DNA from: a virus
Lineage: Duplodnaviria; Caudoviricetes
Reading direction: 5' to 3' (one strand)
DNA: 64,000 nucleotides
IMG/VR virus record: IMGVR_UViG_3300037780_000034
Location: 32,001-96,000 of that record
Position numbers and translations under genes: made by a program
In this document: positions 15,360 through 48,358 of the stretch, in pieces
How positions within the stretch are numbered: position 1 is the stretch's first letter
Layout: each line of letters starts with the position of its first letter
Notes under the pieces: model-generated
Database searches by the model: none
What the model was told of the DNA's origin: nothing
What the model saw: the letters and a program-made list of their open reading frames with translations, nothing else

Positions 15360-16451
15360 ATGGTAAAACCATTTGACGTGTCAAAATTTAGAAAAAATAT
15401 AACAAAAAGTGTTCCGGGTATGAGTGCAGGATTTCGTGATCCAAAAGTGTGGATTTCTACTGGAAATTATGTATTAAACAAATTAATAAGTGGAGACTTT
15501 TATAAAGGTATTCCACTCGGAAAAGTTTCTGTTTTTTCTGGTGAGTCAGGTGCGGGAAAGTCGTATATGGCAAGTGGCAATATTATTAAACACGCACAAG
15601 AACAAGATATATATTGCATTCTCATAGATACAGAAAACGCACTGGATGAATCTTGGCTAAAGGCATTGGGTGTTGACACAAGTGAAGATAAACTATTAAA
15701 ATTAAATATGGCAATGATAGACGATGTTGCTAAAATAATCAGTGACTTTGTAAAAAGCTATAAAGAAGATTATGGCGACAAACCAGAAGATGAAAGACCA
15801 AAAGTATTGTTTGTTATTGATAGTATCGGTATGTTAATGACACCTACAGATGTTGATCAATTTAATAAGGGTGACTTAAAAGGGGATATGGGCCGCCGCC
15901 CTCGTGCATTGAAAGCATTAGTTACTAATTGTGTTAATATGTTTGGAGAATACGATATTGGTATGGTGGCGACTAACCATAGTTATGAAAGTCAAGATAT
16001 GTTTAATCCCGATCCAAAAATGTCTGGCGGAAGTGGATTTCAGTATGCCAGTAGTATACTCATAATGTTAAATAAATTAAAATTAAAAGTAGATGAAAAA
16101 GGAACTAAAACATCTGCCGTTCACGGTATTCGTGCAGTATGCAAAGTAATCAAAACACGTTATGCAAAACCATTTGAAAAAGTTGAATTAGAAATTCCAT
16201 ATTCAACTGGACTTGATCCATATAGCGGAATGTTTTCTTATTCACTTAGTAAAGGTGTTTTATCTAAAACAGGAAATAAGTATGAATATATTGATAAAAA
16301 TGGAGAGGTTCATAAATATTTTCAAAAAGAATATGACAAAAATACTAATGGTATACTTGATTTAATACTTTCTGAATGGGATGAACAATATGACACAAGA
16401 GAACAAGATTTATCAGCAGAACAAGAATACCCTGATACAAATGATAAATGA
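15360..16451 (+). CDS. uvsX: RecA-like recombinase UvsX (start revised to ATG 15360)
   Basis: Walker A GESGAGKS, IDTENA, FVIDSIG, SGG.GFQYASS, KTRYAKPF; GGAG RBS. Confidence 0.95.
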   Translation: MVKPFDVSKFRKNITKSVPGMSAGFRDPKVWISTGNYVLNKLISGDFYKGIPLGKVSVFSGESGAGKSYMASGNIIKHAQEQDIYCILIDTENALDESWLKALGVDTSEDKLLKLNMAMIDDVAKIISDFVKSYKEDYGDKPEDERPKVLFVIDSIGMLMTPTDVDQFNKGDLKGDMGRRPRALKALVTNCVNMFGEYDIGMVATNHSYESQDMFNPDPKMSGGSGFQYASSILIMLNKLKLKVDEKGTKTSAVHGIRAVCKVIKTRYAKPFEKVELEIPYSTGLDPYSGMFSYSLSKGVLSKTGNKYEYIDKNGEVHKYFQKEYDKNTNGILDLILSEWDEQYDTREQDLSAEQEYPDTNDK

Positions 16452-18168
16452 CGCCAATGGCGTCATTCCTAATAGAATAATATTAAACTGTCATCATCCT
16501 GAAATTTTATCAGAAATAGAAAAAAATTGGCCAACAGAGTTGACACCAAAAAGATTTTCAGAAAAGGTGTATCACTATTTGTTTCCAGAAAAAACAATAT
16601 GTGATTACGGAAATCACAAAACTTTTGAAAGTTATAACAAAGGTTATTTTTTTTGCCAAAAGCATTGTAATTGTGCAAAAGAATCCAGAAAGAAAACAAT
16701 GATTGAAAGATATGGAACGGAATATCCGTTACAATCTGAAACATTAAAAGAAAAATTTAAAAATACTCTAGTTGAACGATATGGTGTTGATAATATAAAT
16801 GCAATGACTATAGAAAAACGTGAAACAACAAATTTGAAAAAATATGGTGTCAAATATCCTTTACAATCTAACGAAATTCTTTTAAAAATTGAAAAAACAA
16901 ATGTAGAAAAATATGGTATAAAATATCCATTTCAAGATAAAGAAATTCAAGAAAAGATAAAACAAACTATTTTAGAAAAATATGGTGTATCTACTGTGTT
17001 GGTATTAGAGGAAAATCAAAAAAAATCAAAAAAAGTAATAAACGAAAAATATGGGTCAAATAGTTCATTTTCTTCATTAGAAGTTCAAAACAAAAGAAAA
17101 GAAACTTTGTTAAAAAAATATGGAGTAAGCCATCAATCACAAATACATATTGACCCAATTAAAGTAAATGAACTAAATGATGAAACAAAATTCATAGAAA
17201 TATATAATTCATTTGAACGAGTTAGTGAAATTATGAAATATTTCGGAGTTGGTGAAACCACTATTCATCAACGAGCAAAAAAACTTGGACTTCCTTTAAA
17301 GTATAATACTATTTCTAATGAAGAAGCAGAATTAGTAGATTTTTTATCTAATTATACTATTGTAGAACAGAGTAGGCGTGATATAATTTCTCCTAAAGAA
17401 ATAGATATTTGGCTACCTGAATATAATATTGGAATAGAATATGATGGACTTTATTACCACAGCACAAAAAATGATAGAATTACACCTACATATCATTTAA
17501 AGAAAACAGAAAATGCTAACTGCTTAGGACATAGACTAATACATATTTTTTCAGATGAGTGGATATATAAAAAAGATATTGTTAAAAGTAGATTGTTAAA
17601 TATATTGAACAAAACTGAAAACATTATATATGCAAGAAATACTAAAATAAGAAATTTGAATAATTTACAAAGCAAATCTTTTTTAGAACAAAATCATATA
17701 CAAGGAAATTGCAATTCACATCACAAATATGGATTGTTTTATAATGACGAATTAGTTTCTGTTATGACGTTTGGGGTTCCTCGTTTTAACAAAAACTATG
17801 ATTGGGAATTATTAAGATTCTGTAATAAAACCAATTTTTCTGTCGTTGGCGGTGCCAGTAAACTATTAAATCACTTTATAAAAAATCATAATTCATCAAT
17901 AATATCATATGCAGACCGTAGATGGAGTGATGGAAATTTATATAACCAGCTTGGATTTGTGTTTTTACATAATTCAACTCCAAATTATTATTATATTATC
18001 GGAACAAAAAGAGAAAGTAGAAACAAATATCAAAAACACAAATTAAAAAAACTTTTACCGATATATGATTCATTATTATCGGAAAAGATAAATATGGAAA
18101 ACAATGGTTACTACAGAATTTATGATTGTGGCAATTCTGTATGGGAATATAGAAATAAGGAAAATTAA
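16441..18168 (+). CDS. free-standing Hef-like homing endonuclease (KYG repeats + PD-(D/E)XK + GNAT-like C-terminus); start 16441 or 16381
   Basis: About nine (E/K)(R/K)YG repeats; EIDIWLPEYNIGIEYDGLYYH; FLEQNHIQG, WELLRFC, GGASKL, SYADRRWS, YDCGN. Confidence 0.75.
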   Translation: MINDANGVIPNRIILNCHHPEILSEIEKNWPTELTPKRFSEKVYHYLFPEKTICDYGNHKTFESYNKGYFFCQKHCNCAKESRKKTMIERYGTEYPLQSETLKEKFKNTLVERYGVDNINAMTIEKRETTNLKKYGVKYPLQSNEILLKIEKTNVEKYGIKYPFQDKEIQEKIKQTILEKYGVSTVLVLEENQKKSKKVINEKYGSNSSFSSLEVQNKRKETLLKKYGVSHQSQIHIDPIKVNELNDETKFIEIYNSFERVSEIMKYFGVGETTIHQRAKKLGLPLKYNTISNEEAELVDFLSNYTIVEQSRRDIISPKEIDIWLPEYNIGIEYDGLYYHSTKNDRITPTYHLKKTENANCLGHRLIHIFSDEWIYKKDIVKSRLLNILNKTENIIYARNTKIRNLNNLQSKSFLEQNHIQGNCNSHHKYGLFYNDELVSVMTFGVPRFNKNYDWELLRFCNKTNFSVVGGASKLLNHFIKNHNSSIISYADRRWSDGNLYNQLGFVFLHNSTPNYYYIIGTKRESRNKYQKHKLKKLLPIYDSLLSEKINMENNGYYRIYDCGNSVWEYRNKEN

Positions 18169-28177: not shown

Positions 28178-29905
28178 ATGAATTTACTATATGTAGATAT
28201 AATAAAAGAAAAATGTTTTAACAATGAAAAGTTAAATCCTCATACTAATAAAAAAGAATGGTGGATTAAAAATAACTTAGAACATATATACGATGATATA
28301 TTTGTTAATACAGCATTTTTACCTTTAAGTTCAAAAATAAATCAAAGAATATATACATATGTAAATAATTTAACAGAAACTCCCAAGTGTAAAAAATATG
28401 ATTGTAACAATAATGTTAATTGGCACAACGGCAAATATTTAACATATTGTTCTCCTAAATGCAATTCTTTGTCAACATTAGAAAAAAGAAAAGAAACTAA
28501 TTCAAAAAAATATGGTGTAGACAATCCTTTTAAATCAAAAGAAATTAAAGAAAAAATACGTGAAACTACCATAGAAAAATATGGCGTAGAAAATTTCTCA
28601 AAGACTGACAAATTTAAAAAAGAAATGTCTGAAAAATGGAAAAATAATAAAGAAGAATGGCTAGAAAAAAGAAATGAAAATATACAAAATTACGGATATA
28701 AGTATCCTTTTGAAAACAAAGAAATTTTAAAAAAATCTAAAGATACACTTTTTGAAAAATATGGAAAATATCACCCATTACAGGTAGAAGAAATATTGCA
28801 AAAAGTAAAAAATACAAATATAGAAAAATATGGAGTTTCTAATTTTTTACAAAAAGATATATCAAATGTTTTTTTAGAAAACAGAAATAATAAATTGTTT
28901 TTTGAAAATCTTTTAAAAACACATTCTATAAAACAAATTTCAATTATGTTCAATATATCTTACTCATTATTATGCCAAACATTAGTTAACTTGGATTTTA
29001 ATCTAGGGAATTATTCTGGAAATGAAGTAGAAATATTTGAATTTATATCAAAAGCTGTTAATACTAATATTATAAGAAACGACCGAAAACAATTAAACGG
29101 AAAAGAATTAGACATATATATTCCTGAATATAATTTAGCAATTGAGCATAATGGGATTTATTGGCATAGCGATGAAAAGATAGACAAAAATTATCATTTA
29201 AATAAAACCAAAGCTTGTGAAGAAAAAGGTATAAATTTAATTCATATATTTGAACACGAATGGTTGAATAAAAAAGAAATAGTAAAAAGTATATTAAATT
29301 CAAAGTTTAATAAAACAAGAAAAATATATGCAAGGAATTGTATTGTTAAAAAAGTAGAAAAAAAAGTAGAAAAGAGTTTTTTAGAAAAAAATCATATACA
29401 ATCATACTATCATTCTGCTGTATGTTATGGTTTATATTACGATGAAGAACTTGTTCAATTGATGAGTTTTGGAATTCCAAGATTTGGAAAAAAATATCAA
29501 TGGGAATTGTTAAGGTTATCCACAAAATTAAATATTTCTGTTATTGGCGGTTCTTCAAAGCTTTTTAACAGGTTTATAATTGAATATGATCCAGATAATA
29601 TTGTTTCTTATTGTGACGTAAGATACTTTAGTGGAAATATATATTCAACACTTGGATTTAACTTTTTACATATCAGTAGTCCTAATTATTATTACGTTAA
29701 TAAGAATGGTGAATTTGGAAGTAGATACAAGTTTCAAAAACATAAACTAAAAACAATATTAAAAAATTATGACAATATGTTATCAGAATGGCAAAATATG
29801 AAAAGCAATGGATATAGTAGAATATGGGATTGTGGAAATAAAGTATATATTTACCAAAAGAAAATAAATAATGGTATAGCAATGGAGACCTGCAATGAAG
29901 CGTAA
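28178..29905 (+). CDS. second free-standing Hef-like homing endonuclease
   Basis: CKKYDC..YCSPKC Zn motif, KYG repeats, ELDIYIPEYNLAIEHNGIYWH, WELLRL, GGSSKL, WDCGN. Confidence 0.75.
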   Translation: MNLLYVDIIKEKCFNNEKLNPHTNKKEWWIKNNLEHIYDDIFVNTAFLPLSSKINQRIYTYVNNLTETPKCKKYDCNNNVNWHNGKYLTYCSPKCNSLSTLEKRKETNSKKYGVDNPFKSKEIKEKIRETTIEKYGVENFSKTDKFKKEMSEKWKNNKEEWLEKRNENIQNYGYKYPFENKEILKKSKDTLFEKYGKYHPLQVEEILQKVKNTNIEKYGVSNFLQKDISNVFLENRNNKLFFENLLKTHSIKQISIMFNISYSLLCQTLVNLDFNLGNYSGNEVEIFEFISKAVNTNIIRNDRKQLNGKELDIYIPEYNLAIEHNGIYWHSDEKIDKNYHLNKTKACEEKGINLIHIFEHEWLNKKEIVKSILNSKFNKTRKIYARNCIVKKVEKKVEKSFLEKNHIQSYYHSAVCYGLYYDEELVQLMSFGIPRFGKKYQWELLRLSTKLNISVIGGSSKLFNRFIIEYDPDNIVSYCDVRYFSGNIYSTLGFNFLHISSPNYYYVNKNGEFGSRYKFQKHKLKTILKNYDNMLSEWQNMKSNGYSRIWDCGNKVYIYQKKINNGIAMETCNEA

Positions 29906-31727: not shown

Positions 31728-32027
31728 ATGCCAATGTCAATTGATAAAAAAATAGAAAAACTTGAAGAAGAAAATGAAGAATTTCGTGATGCAATTGGAT
31801 GTATCAAAACCGATTTAGCAGTTATTAAAGAAAAATATCAATCAATGAATGATAAAATTTCTATTATAGATGATAACTTTAACCGAGTTATTCAGTCAAT
31901 GGAAACCCTTAGAGTAGAAAATAACAACCAGCACAAGGCAATGATTAAAACTTTAATAGCAGGAACAGTAACACTAGCTACAAGTATAATAGGGGCAATA
32001 TCTGTAATAATAGCTGCTATATTATAA
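31728..32027 (+). CDS. coiled-coil protein with C-terminal TM (paralog of the previous gene)
   Basis: IKTDLAVIKEK coil then a TM helix. Confidence 0.65.
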   Translation: MPMSIDKKIEKLEEENEEFRDAIGCIKTDLAVIKEKYQSMNDKISIIDDNFNRVIQSMETLRVENNNQHKAMIKTLIAGTVTLATSIIGAISVIIAAIL

Positions 32028-44985: not shown

Positions 44986-45213
44986 ATGAAGCAAAATAAT
45001 GAATTTTCCTTAAAGGGAACAAAAATAGAAGTAAGAAATAATGATGTCAGTGGCGCTATGCGAAAACTAAAAAAGATAGTAACCACTGAGGGAATATTAA
45101 AAGAGTATCGTGATCGTCAATTTTATACTCCACCAAGTGAAAAACGTAGACTCAAAAAAGCTGCTGCAATTCGTAGATATAAAAAAGAAAAATCAAAACT
45201 AAATGATCTTTAA
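44986..45213 (+). CDS. rpsU: 30S ribosomal protein bS21
   Basis: IEVRNNDVSGAMRKLKK..EGILKEYRDRQFYTPPSEKRRLKKAAAIRR. Confidence 0.9.
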   Translation: MKQNNEFSLKGTKIEVRNNDVSGAMRKLKKIVTTEGILKEYRDRQFYTPPSEKRRLKKAAAIRRYKKEKSKLNDL

Positions 45214-45227
45214 TATAGAGATAAAAT

Positions 45228-46325
45228 ATGCTTACAACAAATAATCCTAAGTTAGATTTTAATTCTGTTCTAATTGAACCTATTCCTAGTAATATTTCAA
45301 GTAGAAAAGATGTAAGTTTAAAAAAATATTTGCAATTTAGAAATGGTCAAACTTATGAAGGCATTCCGATAATGGCTGCTAACATGGACGGAGTTGGAAC
45401 GTTTGATATGGCAAAAACACTCTCTGTTATGGGAATGTTTACTTGTTTATCAAAAACATACGACGAAGCCGATCTTGTATCATTTTTTAAAGATGCAGAA
45501 ACCCATATAACTGAAAATGTTGCATATTCTACTGGTATTTCTAATTCAGATTTTAACAAGTTTGAATCAGTATATAGTGAAGTTGGAACAAAAATAAAAT
45601 ACTTATGCATTGATGTTGCAAATGGATATCTTTCTGTTTTTGTAGATTTTATAAAGAAAATACGAACACTTTATCCACAATTAGTTATCATTGCAGGTAA
45701 TGTTGTAACTCCTGAAATGACTGAAATTCTTGCAAAAGCAGGAGCAGATTTTATAAAAATTGGAATCGGCAGTGGTTCTGCATGCACGACTAGAATAAAA
45801 ACAGGTATAGGGTTTCCTCAACTATCTGCTATACTTGAATGTGCAGATATTGCTGATAGTATGGGATCATTTATTATTTCAGATGGTGGATGCACTTGTC
45901 CTGGTGATATTTCTAAGGCATTTGTCGCTGGTGCGGATTTTGTAATGTTAGGTGGAATGTTAGCTGGTCATGATGAAGGCGGTGGCAAAGTTATTACGAA
46001 ATTTTATGAAAGTGATGAATATGACAGTGAATATGTTCATGAACGTATCAAAAAAACTGAAGTGAAAAAATTTGTTCAATTCTACGGAATGAGTTCAAAA
46101 TCTGCCAATGATAAACACTTTGGTGGTTTAAAAGAATACCGAACGTCAGAAGGGCGTGAGGTTCTTGTTCCTTATCGTGGTAAGGTTCAAGATACTGTGC
46201 AAGATATTCTTGGCGGTATAAGAAGCACTTGCACATATTGCAATTCTGCAAATTTGCAAGAATTGTATGAAAATGCTAGATTTATACGAGTAACACAACA
46301 GTATAATAATGTGTTTTCAAATTAA
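45228..46325 (+). CDS. guaC: GMP reductase
   Basis: PIMAANMDGVG, CIDVANGY, IGIGSGSACTTRIKTGIGFPQLSA, FYGMSS, SEG. Confidence 0.9.
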   Translation: MLTTNNPKLDFNSVLIEPIPSNISSRKDVSLKKYLQFRNGQTYEGIPIMAANMDGVGTFDMAKTLSVMGMFTCLSKTYDEADLVSFFKDAETHITENVAYSTGISNSDFNKFESVYSEVGTKIKYLCIDVANGYLSVFVDFIKKIRTLYPQLVIIAGNVVTPEMTEILAKAGADFIKIGIGSGSACTTRIKTGIGFPQLSAILECADIADSMGSFIISDGGCTCPGDISKAFVAGADFVMLGGMLAGHDEGGGKVITKFYESDEYDSEYVHERIKKTEVKKFVQFYGMSSKSANDKHFGGLKEYRTSEGREVLVPYRGKVQDTVQDILGGIRSTCTYCNSANLQELYENARFIRVTQQYNNVFSN

Positions 46326-46392
46326 TAAATACAGATGAGTGCCATAATGGACTCAATAATTAATCTTGCTTTAATAAAGGAGAAAATAAATG
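46324..46392 (+). promoter_or_regulatory. late promoter variant plus ROSE-like RNA thermometer 5'UTR
   Basis: AATAAATA 46324-46331; hairpin 46336-46355; SD-sequestering hairpin 46364-46383 with a UUGCU motif and bulged G. Confidence 0.7.
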
Positions 46393-46845
46393 ACAAGAAT
46401 AACTACTTTTGATTTACCACAACTTGCTAGGTCTTCTGTTGGATTTGAGAGAATGTTTGATGAAATAAATCGTCAATTTGAAAATTCAAAATCTAATGGA
46501 TATCCTCCATATAACGTGGTTGAACTTGAAGAAGATCAGTGGATTATCAGTCTTGCAGTTGCCGGATTTGGAATTGATGACTTTGATATAACACTTGACA
46601 GAAATGTGTTAACGGTAGAAGGAACTTCCAAAAAGAACGACGAAGATGTTAAATATCTTCATAAAGGAATTGGAAGTCGTAATTTCCGCAGACAGTTTAC
46701 CTTAGCAGAACACATTGAAGTAGAAAATGCAAATCTTGATTTGGGAATTTTAAATATTCATCTGAAACGTAATGTTCCAGAAGAAATGCAACCTAAAAAG
46801 ATTTCCATAATAGCTCCTGTTAGTTTAGAAAATAATAGAGACTAA
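46390..46845 (+). CDS. ibpA: small heat-shock protein Hsp20/IbpA
   Basis: SSVGFERMF, YPPYNVV, LAVAGF, YLHKGIG.RNF.RQF.LA, GILNI.L.R.VPEE..PKKI. Confidence 0.95.
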   Translation: MTRITTFDLPQLARSSVGFERMFDEINRQFENSKSNGYPPYNVVELEEDQWIISLAVAGFGIDDFDITLDRNVLTVEGTSKKNDEDVKYLHKGIGSRNFRRQFTLAEHIEVENANLDLGILNIHLKRNVPEEMQPKKISIIAPVSLENNRD

Positions 46846-46860
46846 ACTATTATTATCCGT

Positions 46861-46896
46861 ATCATAGGGAGATTATAATCTCCCTATGATTTTATT
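46861..46896 (+). terminator. intrinsic terminator (30-nt perfect palindrome)
   Basis: ATCATAGGGAGATTA|TAATCTCCCTATGAT followed by TTTT. Confidence 0.9.
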
Positions 46897-46925
46897 ATAT
46901 CAAACAATTTATTATAGGTTTAAAA

Positions 46926-47252
46926 ATGCCAGAAATGCAAGAAATACTAGAACATATACGAGAAGGAAAAAAACAATCAAAAAAAGTAAATTTTTCTGAT
47001 ATCAAAAAATGGAATGTTATATTTTATAATGATAACAAAACAACAATGGAATTTGTCATTTCTGTATTAGTTGAAATATTTAATCATACAGAAACTAAAG
47101 CAAAAGAATTAACTTTTAAAATTCACGAAGATGGTAGTGCTATAGTAGGTCAATACATATATGAAATTGCAGAACAAAAAGCATCTGAAACACTAACATT
47201 TGCATCTATGAATTCGTATCCATTAAAAGTAAATATCGAAAAAGATGAGTAA
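46926..47252 (+). CDS. clpS: Clp protease adaptor ClpS
   Basis: VIFYNDNKTTMEFVISVL..IF, IH..G.AIVG.Y.YEIAE.K, YPL.V.IE. Confidence 0.9.
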   Translation: MPEMQEILEHIREGKKQSKKVNFSDIKKWNVIFYNDNKTTMEFVISVLVEIFNHTETKAKELTFKIHEDGSAIVGQYIYEIAEQKASETLTFASMNSYPLKVNIEKDE

Positions 47253-47303
47253 CACAAGCTATTCGTTTTATGCATACCGACTCTTCCTAAAACACATTTG
47301 TTT

Positions 47304-47332
47304 TTGATGAAAATCTATGATAAGTATATGAT
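47304..47332 (+). promoter_or_regulatory. sigma70-like promoter
   Basis: TTGATG-17-TATGAT. Confidence 0.55.
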
Positions 47333-47362
47333 GTGAACAAAGAAAACAATAGGAGATTCTTT

Positions 47363-47530
47363 ATGTTTGGTTATATACTAAGATTTTTTCGTAACAGTAA
47401 GTCATTAAAAGATGCAGACTTGCAAAGATTTGCTAGAAATGAATTTAAAAAAGATGCAGAATATGCATATTACTGGATGAAAAAAAATAAAACAATATTT
47501 ATGTCATATGGAGATATTAGAAATGTATAA
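47363..47530 (+). CDS. small hypothetical protein (start revised to ATG 47363)
   Basis: AGGAG RBS. Confidence 0.65.
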   Translation: MFGYILRFFRNSKSLKDADLQRFARNEFKKDAEYAYYWMKKNKTIFMSYGDIRNV

Positions 47531-47699
47531 TGCGATGAAAACAAAAATTTCAAATATAATAGAGATAATATACTATCATCTAGAAATAATGAGTTATGCA
47601 CGATCCATTTCTATGTTATATGATATGGGATATCCAGACCTTGCAAAGAAAGCTTTTGAAAATTTAAAAGAGTTCCAAAAGCAATACAACAAAGGTTGA
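47508..47699 (+). CDS. small hypothetical protein
   Basis: 63 aa; overlaps the previous ORF. Confidence 0.6.
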   Translation: MEILEMYNAMKTKISNIIEIIYYHLEIMSYARSISMLYDMGYPDLAKKAFENLKEFQKQYNKG

Positions 47700-47724
47700 C
47701 ACTAACGCATCGTTCTGCTATATC
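47696..47724 (+). promoter_or_regulatory. sigma70-like promoter (TTGAC-N17-CTATAT)
   Basis: Exact spacing read from sequence. Confidence 0.7.
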
Positions 47725-47755
47725 CACAGATGTAAGTCTAATAGGATATAGCAGA

Positions 47756-48358
47756 ATGATCAATGTCCAAGGAAAACTGCCGAAAGAATTGGTAATCGCT
47801 TGTAGCGGCGGCCCTGACAGTATGGCAATCGTTGATTTCCTAAAACGTAAGCACAAAGTTATGCTACAATTTGTTCATCATATGACAGATACAAGTGATG
47901 AAGCATTTGACTTGCTTAAAAAATATGGAAAAGACCATAATATTGATGTTTTCGTAGACTATATTGATCCCGATGTTCCAAAAGGTGTTAGCCAAGAAGA
48001 ACATTGGCGTAATCAACGATATGATGTATTCTTTAAATATAAAAGTCATCCCGTAATTACTGGTCATCATCTTGATGATTGTGTGGAAACTTGGATTTGG
48101 AGTTCTATGCACGGTATGGGAAAAATTATTCCATATCGTAACAACAATGTTATTCGTCCGTTTCGCACAACTCGTAAAACTGATTTTGTAAACTGGTGTG
48201 ATCGTAACAATGTGCCTTATATGATTGATAAATCAAACAATGATCAAAAGTATATGAGGAATTATATTCGCCATACAGTTCTTCCTAACGTATTGCATAT
48301 TAATCCAGGAATTCATAAGACTATCAAAAAGAAAATTATCAATGAAGATATTTGTTAA
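47756..48358 (+). CDS. tilS: tRNA(Ile)-lysidine synthetase, catalytic domain only (start revised to ATG 47756)
   Basis: PP-loop ACSGGPDSM, R..RY, TGHHLDD..ET, IRP, D.SN....Y.RN.IRH. Confidence 0.85.
   Translation: MINVQGKLPKELVIACSGGPDSMAIVDFLKRKHKVMLQFVHHMTDTSDEAFDLLKKYGKDHNIDVFVDYIDPDVPKGVSQEEHWRNQRYDVFFKYKSHPVITGHHLDDCVETWIWSSMHGMGKIIPYRNNNVIRPFRTTRKTDFVNWCDRNNVPYMIDKSNNDQKYMRNYIRHTVLPNVLHINPGIHKTIKKKIINEDIC

Follow-up and report, generated by a model that had tools for sequence, protein, structure and literature searches.

The window analysed here is a stretch of 64,000 nucleotides, positions 32,001 to 96,000 of the IMG/VR virus record IMGVR_UViG_3300037780_000034 (Duplodnaviria; Caudoviricetes), a giant-phage record of 317,722 bp (31% G+C) whose DNA is found in three metagenome runs, from ponds or other sources. 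It carries a gene for a small heat-shock protein (sHSP) of the IbpA family, preceded by a leader of 53-58 nt that is probably a short two-hairpin ROSE-like RNA thermometer. A first-pass annotation, made from the letters of the window, had placed a small heat-shock gene downstream of such an element, and this holds: the encoded protein matches Pfam HSP20 (1.8e-16), is assigned to PHROG 432 (Hsp20) and shares 43% identity with E. coli IbpA over its whole length (E 3e-39). The features at the locus, including the Shine-Dalgarno (SD) sequence and the strand facing it, are as follows.

46324-46331, + strand: late-promoter-like box AATAAATA, T4-type, matching TATAAATA at 7/8 positions
46336-46355, + strand: hairpin 1 (HP1), UGAGU-G-CC / AUAAU / GG-ACUCA
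46364-46372, + strand: anti-SD strand UCUUGCUUU (as DNA TCTTGCTTT), containing the ROSE motif UUGCU (46366-46370)
46373-46375, + strand: loop AAU of hairpin 2 (HP2) in the local minimum-free-energy (MFE) structure
46376-46383, + strand: SD strand AAAGGAGA, with the SD core GGAG (46379-46382) pairing with the anti-SD
46390-46845, + strand: IbpA-family sHSP gene, 151 aa, start codon at 46390
46861-46896, + strand: intrinsic terminator with a 13-bp stem, the loop UAUA and a U tail (terminator scan: 1 found versus 0.1 expected)

HP1 is built of five outer pairs, the bulged G46341 and two C-G pairs beneath the loop AUAAU. The pairs of HP2, given by the last two digits of their coordinates, are U64-A83, C65-G82, U66-A81, U67.G80, C69-G79, U70-A78, U71-A77 and U72-A76, leaving G46368 bulged with a U.G pair beside the bulge; the U run at 46370-72 pairs with the AAA upstream of the SD. 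The leader is not of the fourU type, in which four U residues face the AGGA of the SD, as its SD core pairs with C-U-U..C around the bulged G. The element stops 6 nt 5' of the sHSP start codon, and at its other end the AATAAATA box shares bases with the stop codon of the GMP-reductase gene that lies upstream. Both hairpins had been located by the first-pass annotation, and its coordinates proved right to the base: the pairing of 46364-46372 with 46376-46383, with G46368 bulged and a U-G pair adjacent, is the local MFE structure, and the hairpin at 46336-46355 also covaries in relatives.

In ViennaRNA, HP2 is the exact local MFE structure, at -7.0, -5.4, -3.7 and -1.8 kcal/mol at 5, 15, 25 and 37 C, while HP1 is predicted to be folded at all temperatures tried (5-42 C). 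The AUG is predicted to be unpaired in the leader-only fold, and when 30 nt of coding sequence are added the MFE structure consists of HP1, HP2 and a downstream hairpin. With warming the SD is predicted to become more accessible, from 0.02 at 5 C up to 0.25-0.46 at 45 C. Within the phage genome the hsp SD lies among the most occluded 4% (local context) to 9% (wider context) of 270 SD-bearing genes.

These modelled folds point to a temperature-dependent translation of the phage sHSP. The transcript would start at the foot of HP1, some 6 nt downstream of the AATAAATA box, and HP1 would act as a stable, temperature-insensitive scaffold and as a 5' cap. In the cold, UCUUGCUUU is predicted to pair imperfectly with AAAGGAGA, hiding the SD from the 30S subunit; warming would melt the AU-rich helix of HP2 and let the sHSP be translated. 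The same leader RNA may also report free sHSP, i.e. aggregation load, because the phage protein keeps the residues with which IbpA represses its own synthesis.

Conservation of the leader among phage relatives

Relatives were taken from 13 and then 80 further viral contigs encoding homologues with 40-75% protein identity, and IMG/VR holds at least 593 such stretches. The shared leader design recurs in 82 of the 84 non-redundant leaders from phages, and with it the ROSE-type U(U/C)GCU motif and the bulged G on which the first-pass annotation had based its reading. The conserved order is a (T)ATAAATA box, HP1 with its bulged G, a variable spacer, (A/U/C)CU(U/C)GCU(U) and the SD, with the HP1 core taking the form xUGCC...GGGx. 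The register of HP2 is likewise recognizable: a lower stem of 3-6 bp on GAG(A/G), a bulged purine, then CUU/AAG. In a MAFFT alignment of 82 leaders CUUGCU stands out, with columns at least 90% invariant against a variable spacer and variable loops, and the HP2 bulge is a purine in all 82 motif-bearing leaders (G in 77, A in 4-5).

We built a covariance model (R1) from the phage leaders, with the window sequence in its seed, and it matched 85 of 87 sources. On the window itself, R1 gives 55.5 bits (E 5e-10) at the hsp leader only, a score to be read with that seed membership in mind, and a looser motif scan of the 318-kb genome revealed no second copy of the leader. In the R1-fitted alignment of 85 leaders, 99.8% of the HP1 cells are paired, with compensatory changes at 5/6 pairs; HP2 is paired in 91.4%, mainly with both strands conserved. 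All five pairing measures taken on this alignment beat 500/500 shuffles and every slid register. Compensation in HP2 takes the form of U-A to C-G in L009, L010, L083, L085, L087 and L096, whose leaders read CCU(U/C)GCU...GGAGG, and cyanophage S-TIM5, read by eye, has CCACGCUU with AAGGUGG.

In a protein tree, 85 phage sHSPs and five phage-type contigs from metagenome-assembled genomes (MAGs) form one clade (support 0.947), with an alphaproteobacterial sHSP clade as its sister; the sampling of this tree is biased, in that the phage and bacterial sets were both picked as best matches to the phage protein. The five contigs (L100, L101, L103, L174 and L178) show a phage-type hsp locus, several with a late box, in MAGs of Polynucleobacter, Pirellulales, Haliscomenobacter and Sphingobacteriales. 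Their position within the phage sHSP clade makes it probable that these are viral contigs wrongly binned into the MAGs.

Likeness to ROSE elements and competing explanations

A bulged G opposite the SD is also a feature of ROSE1. ROSE-like thermometers are defined by a U(U/C)GCU motif imperfectly masking the SD in the 3' hairpin, an unpaired AUG and stable 5' hairpins, and the ibpA genes of Pseudomonas have two-hairpin ROSE-like versions of 61-62 nt (Krajewski 2013, PMC3669281). The window leader has every one of these features at the sequence level: it is the 5' untranslated region (UTR) of an sHSP gene, with the UUGCU-SD pairing, the bulged G, a 5' hairpin and a free AUG.

The closest likeness is to the Pseudomonas ibpA element (Rfam ROSE_3), which shares with the phage leader an IbpA-type sHSP gene downstream, two hairpins within about 55-62 nt, a free AUG, a hairpin I with the xAUGCC...GGGUx core and a bulged G, and a hairpin II with U(U/C)GCU lying imperfectly on the SD. 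Indeed, the phage HP1 motif is that of hairpin I in the consensus of ROSE_3, GGGAU-G-CCG...CGG-GUCCC, bulged G included. Unlike it, the phage leader is phage-borne and AU-rich, lacks the G-C clamps flanking the Pseudomonas SD/anti-SD core, is predicted to be about 15 C colder in stability, and has a T4-type late box where Pseudomonas has a sigma-32 promoter. The SD hairpin of E. coli ibpA, CUC[G]CUGA/UCAGGAG with a bulged G, has the same design as the phage HP2, but the E. coli leader is longer (about 100 nt, with more hairpins), more stable and sigma-32-dependent (PMC10474464; PMC10410725). Alphaproteobacterial ROSE elements (RF00435) share the HP1 core and a UUGCU/UCGCU anti-SD, and their sHSPs are the sister group of the phage clade; in contrast to the phage leader, they have three to four hairpins, are GC-rich and lie behind a sigma-32 (RpoH) promoter.

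For the last hairpin of the validated E. coli ibpA element the predicted free energies are -6.3 kcal/mol (25 C) and -3.8 kcal/mol (42 C), and for the phage HP2 they are -6.2 kcal/mol (10 C) and -3.7 kcal/mol (25 C). By nearest-neighbour parameters, which ignore non-canonical pairs, the phage hairpin is thus predicted to cross the 25-42 C stability range of E. coli ibpA at about 10-25 C, some 15 C colder, which would fit a pond host.

Likeness to ROSE can also be gauged with the Rfam models, whose gathering thresholds are 43 bits for ROSE_3 and 45 bits for ROSE. ROSE_3 matches fall exactly on the hsp leader in the relatives L039 (38.2 bits), L028 (35.3), L050 (31.8), L040 (31.3), L082 (29.4), L034 (28.1), L003 (27.9), L043 (23.5), L047 (21.7), L022 (19.1) and L009 (15.6). 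Other ROSE_3 matches were set aside: a weak one just outside the window was not confirmed by R1, and those lying away from hsp in relatives concern dnaK, small unknown ORFs or spurious sites (L183, L184). For comparison, we assembled 80 bacterial loci of the nearest cellular homologues, mostly from Alphaproteobacteria; their leaders are visibly of the ROSE type, with HP1 (GGAUGCC..GGGUCC) and the UUGCU/UCGCU motifs. Searching 75 of them with R1 found 15 sHSP leaders at the correct place, including those of Pelagibacterales, Hyphomonadaceae and Hellea. The Rfam ROSE models miss the bacterial ROSE-like leaders too, at 33-36 bits, so the models are narrow and failure to reach their thresholds says little about class membership.

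One more Rfam family touches the leader. The orphan motif freshwater-2 (RF02980) has a weak match at window 46337-46392 (21 bits), arising from HP1 and the AAAGGAGAAAA..AUG context. Its weak matches on this stretch and on L004:1423-1503 score 21-26 bits (cut-off 49.9), and the RF02980 consensus ends in a AAAGGAGAAAAcAAAUG context; the motif may derive from leaders of related freshwater phages. A scan of the whole window with Rfam brought up only a terminator look-alike, ctRNA_pND324, and a miRNA look-alike, neither of which was retained.

A number of results weigh against a thermometer of the ROSE type. The covariance search that the first-pass annotation had proposed did not bear it out directly: none of the Rfam ROSE families (ROSE RF00435, ROSE_2, ROSE_3 RF02523) matches the window even with E values up to 10 allowed, and the relatives all stay below the ROSE_3 gathering score (range 15.6-38.2 bits). 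In the context 46330-46400, a competing UCUUG/CAAGA pairing, which involves codons 2-3 and spans the start codon, wins the MFE; as a conserved feature this pairing was rejected, since several UCUUG leaders of relatives have ACAAAA or ACACAA codons. When the stretch 46337-46375 was dinucleotide-shuffled, 126 of 1000 shuffles occluded the SD at least equally at 15 C, and the z-score of the whole leader is only -1.5; the single window sequence is therefore not beyond chance. Nearest-neighbour predictions are crude in any case, as the validated E. coli ibpA element is predicted to be closed even at 45 C. On the comparative side, RNAalifold on the MAFFT alignment recovers HP1 only and not HP2, compensatory cells in HP2 are few, one of its strands (the SD) is constrained anyway, and the R1-fitted alignment (A3) was fitted to the model. 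Finally, if the host belonged to the Bacteroidota, with weak SD use, phage S21 or another factor would be required for the mechanism.

Taken by itself, then, the hairpin could have arisen by chance, the genome being AT-rich, the SD rich in purines and the stretch facing it rich in U, and the unremarkable single-sequence statistics are what such an account would predict. It is nevertheless scarcely credible and already refuted by the comparative data, as more than 80 independent leaders, and cultured phages as well, repeat the same motifs with unchanged spacing, and R1 scores its 55.5 bits at the hsp leader alone, even if the window was in the seed. The leader is thus lifted above chance by its conservation in relatives, and it is this conservation in more than 80 of them, read from aligned sequences, that we regard as decisive over single-sequence statistics.

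Conservation might also mark a constitutive remnant of a captured gene, in which HP1 stabilises the 5' end of the mRNA and a weak anti-SD damps translation, with no sensing involved. HP2 is indeed weak, 12.6% of shuffles occlude the SD equally, several other genes of the same phage have more occluded SDs, and sensing is so far a prediction. However, the anti-SD is at least 90% invariant across the phage clade while the flanking UTR drifts, the bulged purine persists wherever the motif occurs (82/82) although its sole effect is to weaken the helix, and the leader has been placed again before dnaK and groES. A remnant of this kind appears to us improbable.

A different kind of sensing deserves more weight. 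The IbpA proteins of E. coli, Cedecea and Vibrio repress their own translation via the ROSE-like ibpA leader, for which Y34, R93 and R97/K98 are needed (PMC10474464). Y38, R97 and R101 of the phage sHSP are the equivalents of E. coli Y34, R93 and R97 and are invariant in eight phage homologues; the place of K98 is taken by Q102, with R100 adjacent. By sequence, the phage sHSP has the residues of IbpA-type self-regulation, its RNA binding being putative. The leader could accordingly be mainly an autoregulatory site, with temperature playing a minor part: free sHSP would block its own 5' UTR until, late in infection, it is drawn to misfolded capsid or host proteins and repression is lifted. Besides the bacterial precedent and the three retained residues, this account has in its favour that a late-promoter gene for virion assembly gains more obviously from a load sensor than from a heat sensor. 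Against it stand the Q102 substitution and the presence of the leader before dnaK and groES, whose products have no known leader binding, although the sHSP could act there in trans. Moreover, it is compatible with thermosensing, as both act on one RNA in E. coli. We consider a mainly autoregulatory function unlikely, if a serious candidate, and retain the ROSE-like thermometer as the probable reading.

Promoter and genomic setting

A T4-type late promoter plausibly drives the leader. In relatives, (T)ATAAATA lies just 5' of HP1 in 64 of 81 phage leaders, a median of 64 nt before the ATG, and TTGAC(A/T) is found upstream of the box in 12. In the phage genome TATAAATA is rarer than expected (70 vs 127), and 46% of its copies lie in intergenic DNA, which makes up 11% of the genome, a four-fold enrichment; they usually precede a start codon by about 26 nt. 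Outside the window, at G000:C1:246099-246326 (L187), a 303-aa open frame includes a homologue of gp55, the late sigma factor of T4, with 37% identity over residues 38-115 (E 2.7e-8). No promoter of the sigma-32 type (CTTGAA/CCCCAT type) was seen by eye 5' of the window leader, and a scan for sigma-70-type promoters there gave weak matches only. Transcription from T4 late promoters starts about 6 nt after the box, and from this we infer a start near 46337, at the foot of HP1. Of the late-type promoter proposed by the first-pass annotation, the putative box finds support in its 7/8 matching positions, its recurrence in relatives and the gp55 homologue, while the start at hairpin 1 stays a projection from the T4 rule. 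Seven leaders without a box directly follow a gene with a DnaK-like C-terminus, so that the element is at least retained, and may also function, within operons; the occurrence of leaders inside dnaK-hsp20 operons without a promoter box indicates a translational role.

The sHSP transcription unit is monocistronic to judge from the intrinsic terminator directly after the gene, and the weak Rfam match to ctRNA_pND324 is this same stretch. The neighbours of the sHSP gene, which code for ribosomal protein S21, GMP reductase, ClpS and a PP-loop (TilS-like) enzyme, make up with it a co-oriented translation/proteostasis cluster at 44986-48358. An SD of the form GGAG/GAGG/AGGA precedes 59% of the called genes of the phage genome, so the ribosome of the host must employ SD pairing or have been altered to do so. 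Phage hsp20 genes and their linkage to S21 and Clp genes are already known (PMC9723584; PMC12619734). A search of cultured-phage DNA with the locus gave a single match, to 62 nt of the GMP-reductase gene. Elsewhere in the window, in the replication-gene region, lie two large paralogous HNH/homing-endonuclease genes (16381-18168 and 28178-29905; PHROG 3339, E ~1e-130).

Distribution of the leader and its meaning

To see which genes carry the leader, IMG/VR was scanned for CTTGCTT followed by AAGGAGA at a gap of 2-8 and then by ATG at a gap of 4-9, a pattern taken from sHSP leaders. Among the matches listed, at least 121 distinct ORFs lie downstream of the motif.

sHSP: about 104 of the 121 ORFs listed (86 by strict motif, 18 by eye)
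DnaK: 6 of 121 (one checked by Pfam: HSP70, 853 bits)
GroES: 1 of 121 (Cpn10, 89 bits)
small proteins without Pfam family: 2 of 121 (no Pfam match)
unrelated ORFs: about 6 of 121 (four of the six without HP1)
cut or very short ORFs: 2 of 121 (left unclassified)

As sHSP leaders had supplied the pattern, a high share of sHSP genes is expected. DnaK and GroES are encoded by independent genes that have the same leader. A dnaK gene stands behind a ROSE-like leader, with late box, HP1, CUUGCU and SD, at L180:98-164 (G012), L208:750-2748 and L259:5628-7635, and several contigs show the arrangement ROSE-dnaK-ROSE-hsp20, each cistron with its own copy of the leader. The phage groES at L266:10730-11061 follows a leader with a ATAATAAATA box, 2 kb upstream of the hsp20 copy of that contig. 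Proteins of 60-100 aa without a Pfam family also occur behind the leader (L041:1235-1479; L181:70-397; L182; L199:2534-2803; L246:4207-4401); some of these small proteins share the N-terminal pattern ..Q.GKK.F(V/I).., and the small ORF of L041 separates the leader from hsp20.

Among cultured phages, at least 497 records have sHSP homologues (identity at most 47%), mostly from cyanomyoviruses, of which hsp20 is a core gene (PMC3037559). R1 found the hsp20 leader in the following.

Methylophilales phage Melnitz, L190:137-208, 47.1 bits
Cyanophage S-RIM12, L189:183-250, 39.6 bits
Pelagibacter phage HTVC103P, L194:187-256, 39.6 bits
Prochlorococcus phage P-SSM4, L188:186-247, 38.4 bits
Sinorhizobium phage Phosso, L192:176-238, 34.5 bits
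Pelagibacter phage HTVC115P, 29.3 bits

The two pelagiphages, HTVC103P and HTVC115P, have a sigma-70-type promoter (TTGACA/TATAAT) in place of the late box.

RNA thermometers in phages are already known. The cIII gene of phage lambda has one, and blyA of the SPbeta prophage is controlled by a fourU RNA thermometer (PMC10586365). Like the leader described here, both are phage-borne and exert a cis-acting, temperature-responsive control of translation initiation. They differ from it in fold, motif and target, a lysis-lysogeny regulator and an autolysin, and neither is of the ROSE type or linked to a chaperone. In the literature searched, with most subscription journals outside its scope, no report pairs hsp20 of phages or cyanophages with a thermometer or a ROSE element, and none describes how phage hsp20 is regulated; a ROSE-type element before a phage chaperone gene thus appears to be unreported. 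What sets the phage leader apart is that it is spread widely across phages, stands in a late-promoter context and extends to dnaK and groES.

Taken together, these observations, with the same leader conserved in hundreds of phages, cultured cyanophages included, suggest that phages sense heat or protein damage in the cells they infect. More tentatively, and with the balance somewhat on the side of doubt, many aquatic phage lineages (T4-like cyanophages, pelagiphages, methylophages and jumbo phages) may run a thermometer-gated chaperone regulon of their own, with sHSP, DnaK or GroES placed behind a ROSE-like leader and usually under a phage late promoter rather than host sigma-32. If this is true, phage chaperones would be governed by a phage-borne cis-acting sensor of temperature, and possibly of aggregation, and ROSE elements would no longer be confined to Alpha- and Gammaproteobacteria or to sHSP genes, dnaK and groES being added. 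The phage leaders, very short, AU-rich and tuned to the cold, would then form a natural series of thermometers, the melting point of each adapted to its habitat. The proteostasis of virion assembly would be tuned to water temperature, aggregation load or both, independently of the heat-shock response of the host, and the leader would offer a molecular handle on the dependence of infection outcome on water temperature.

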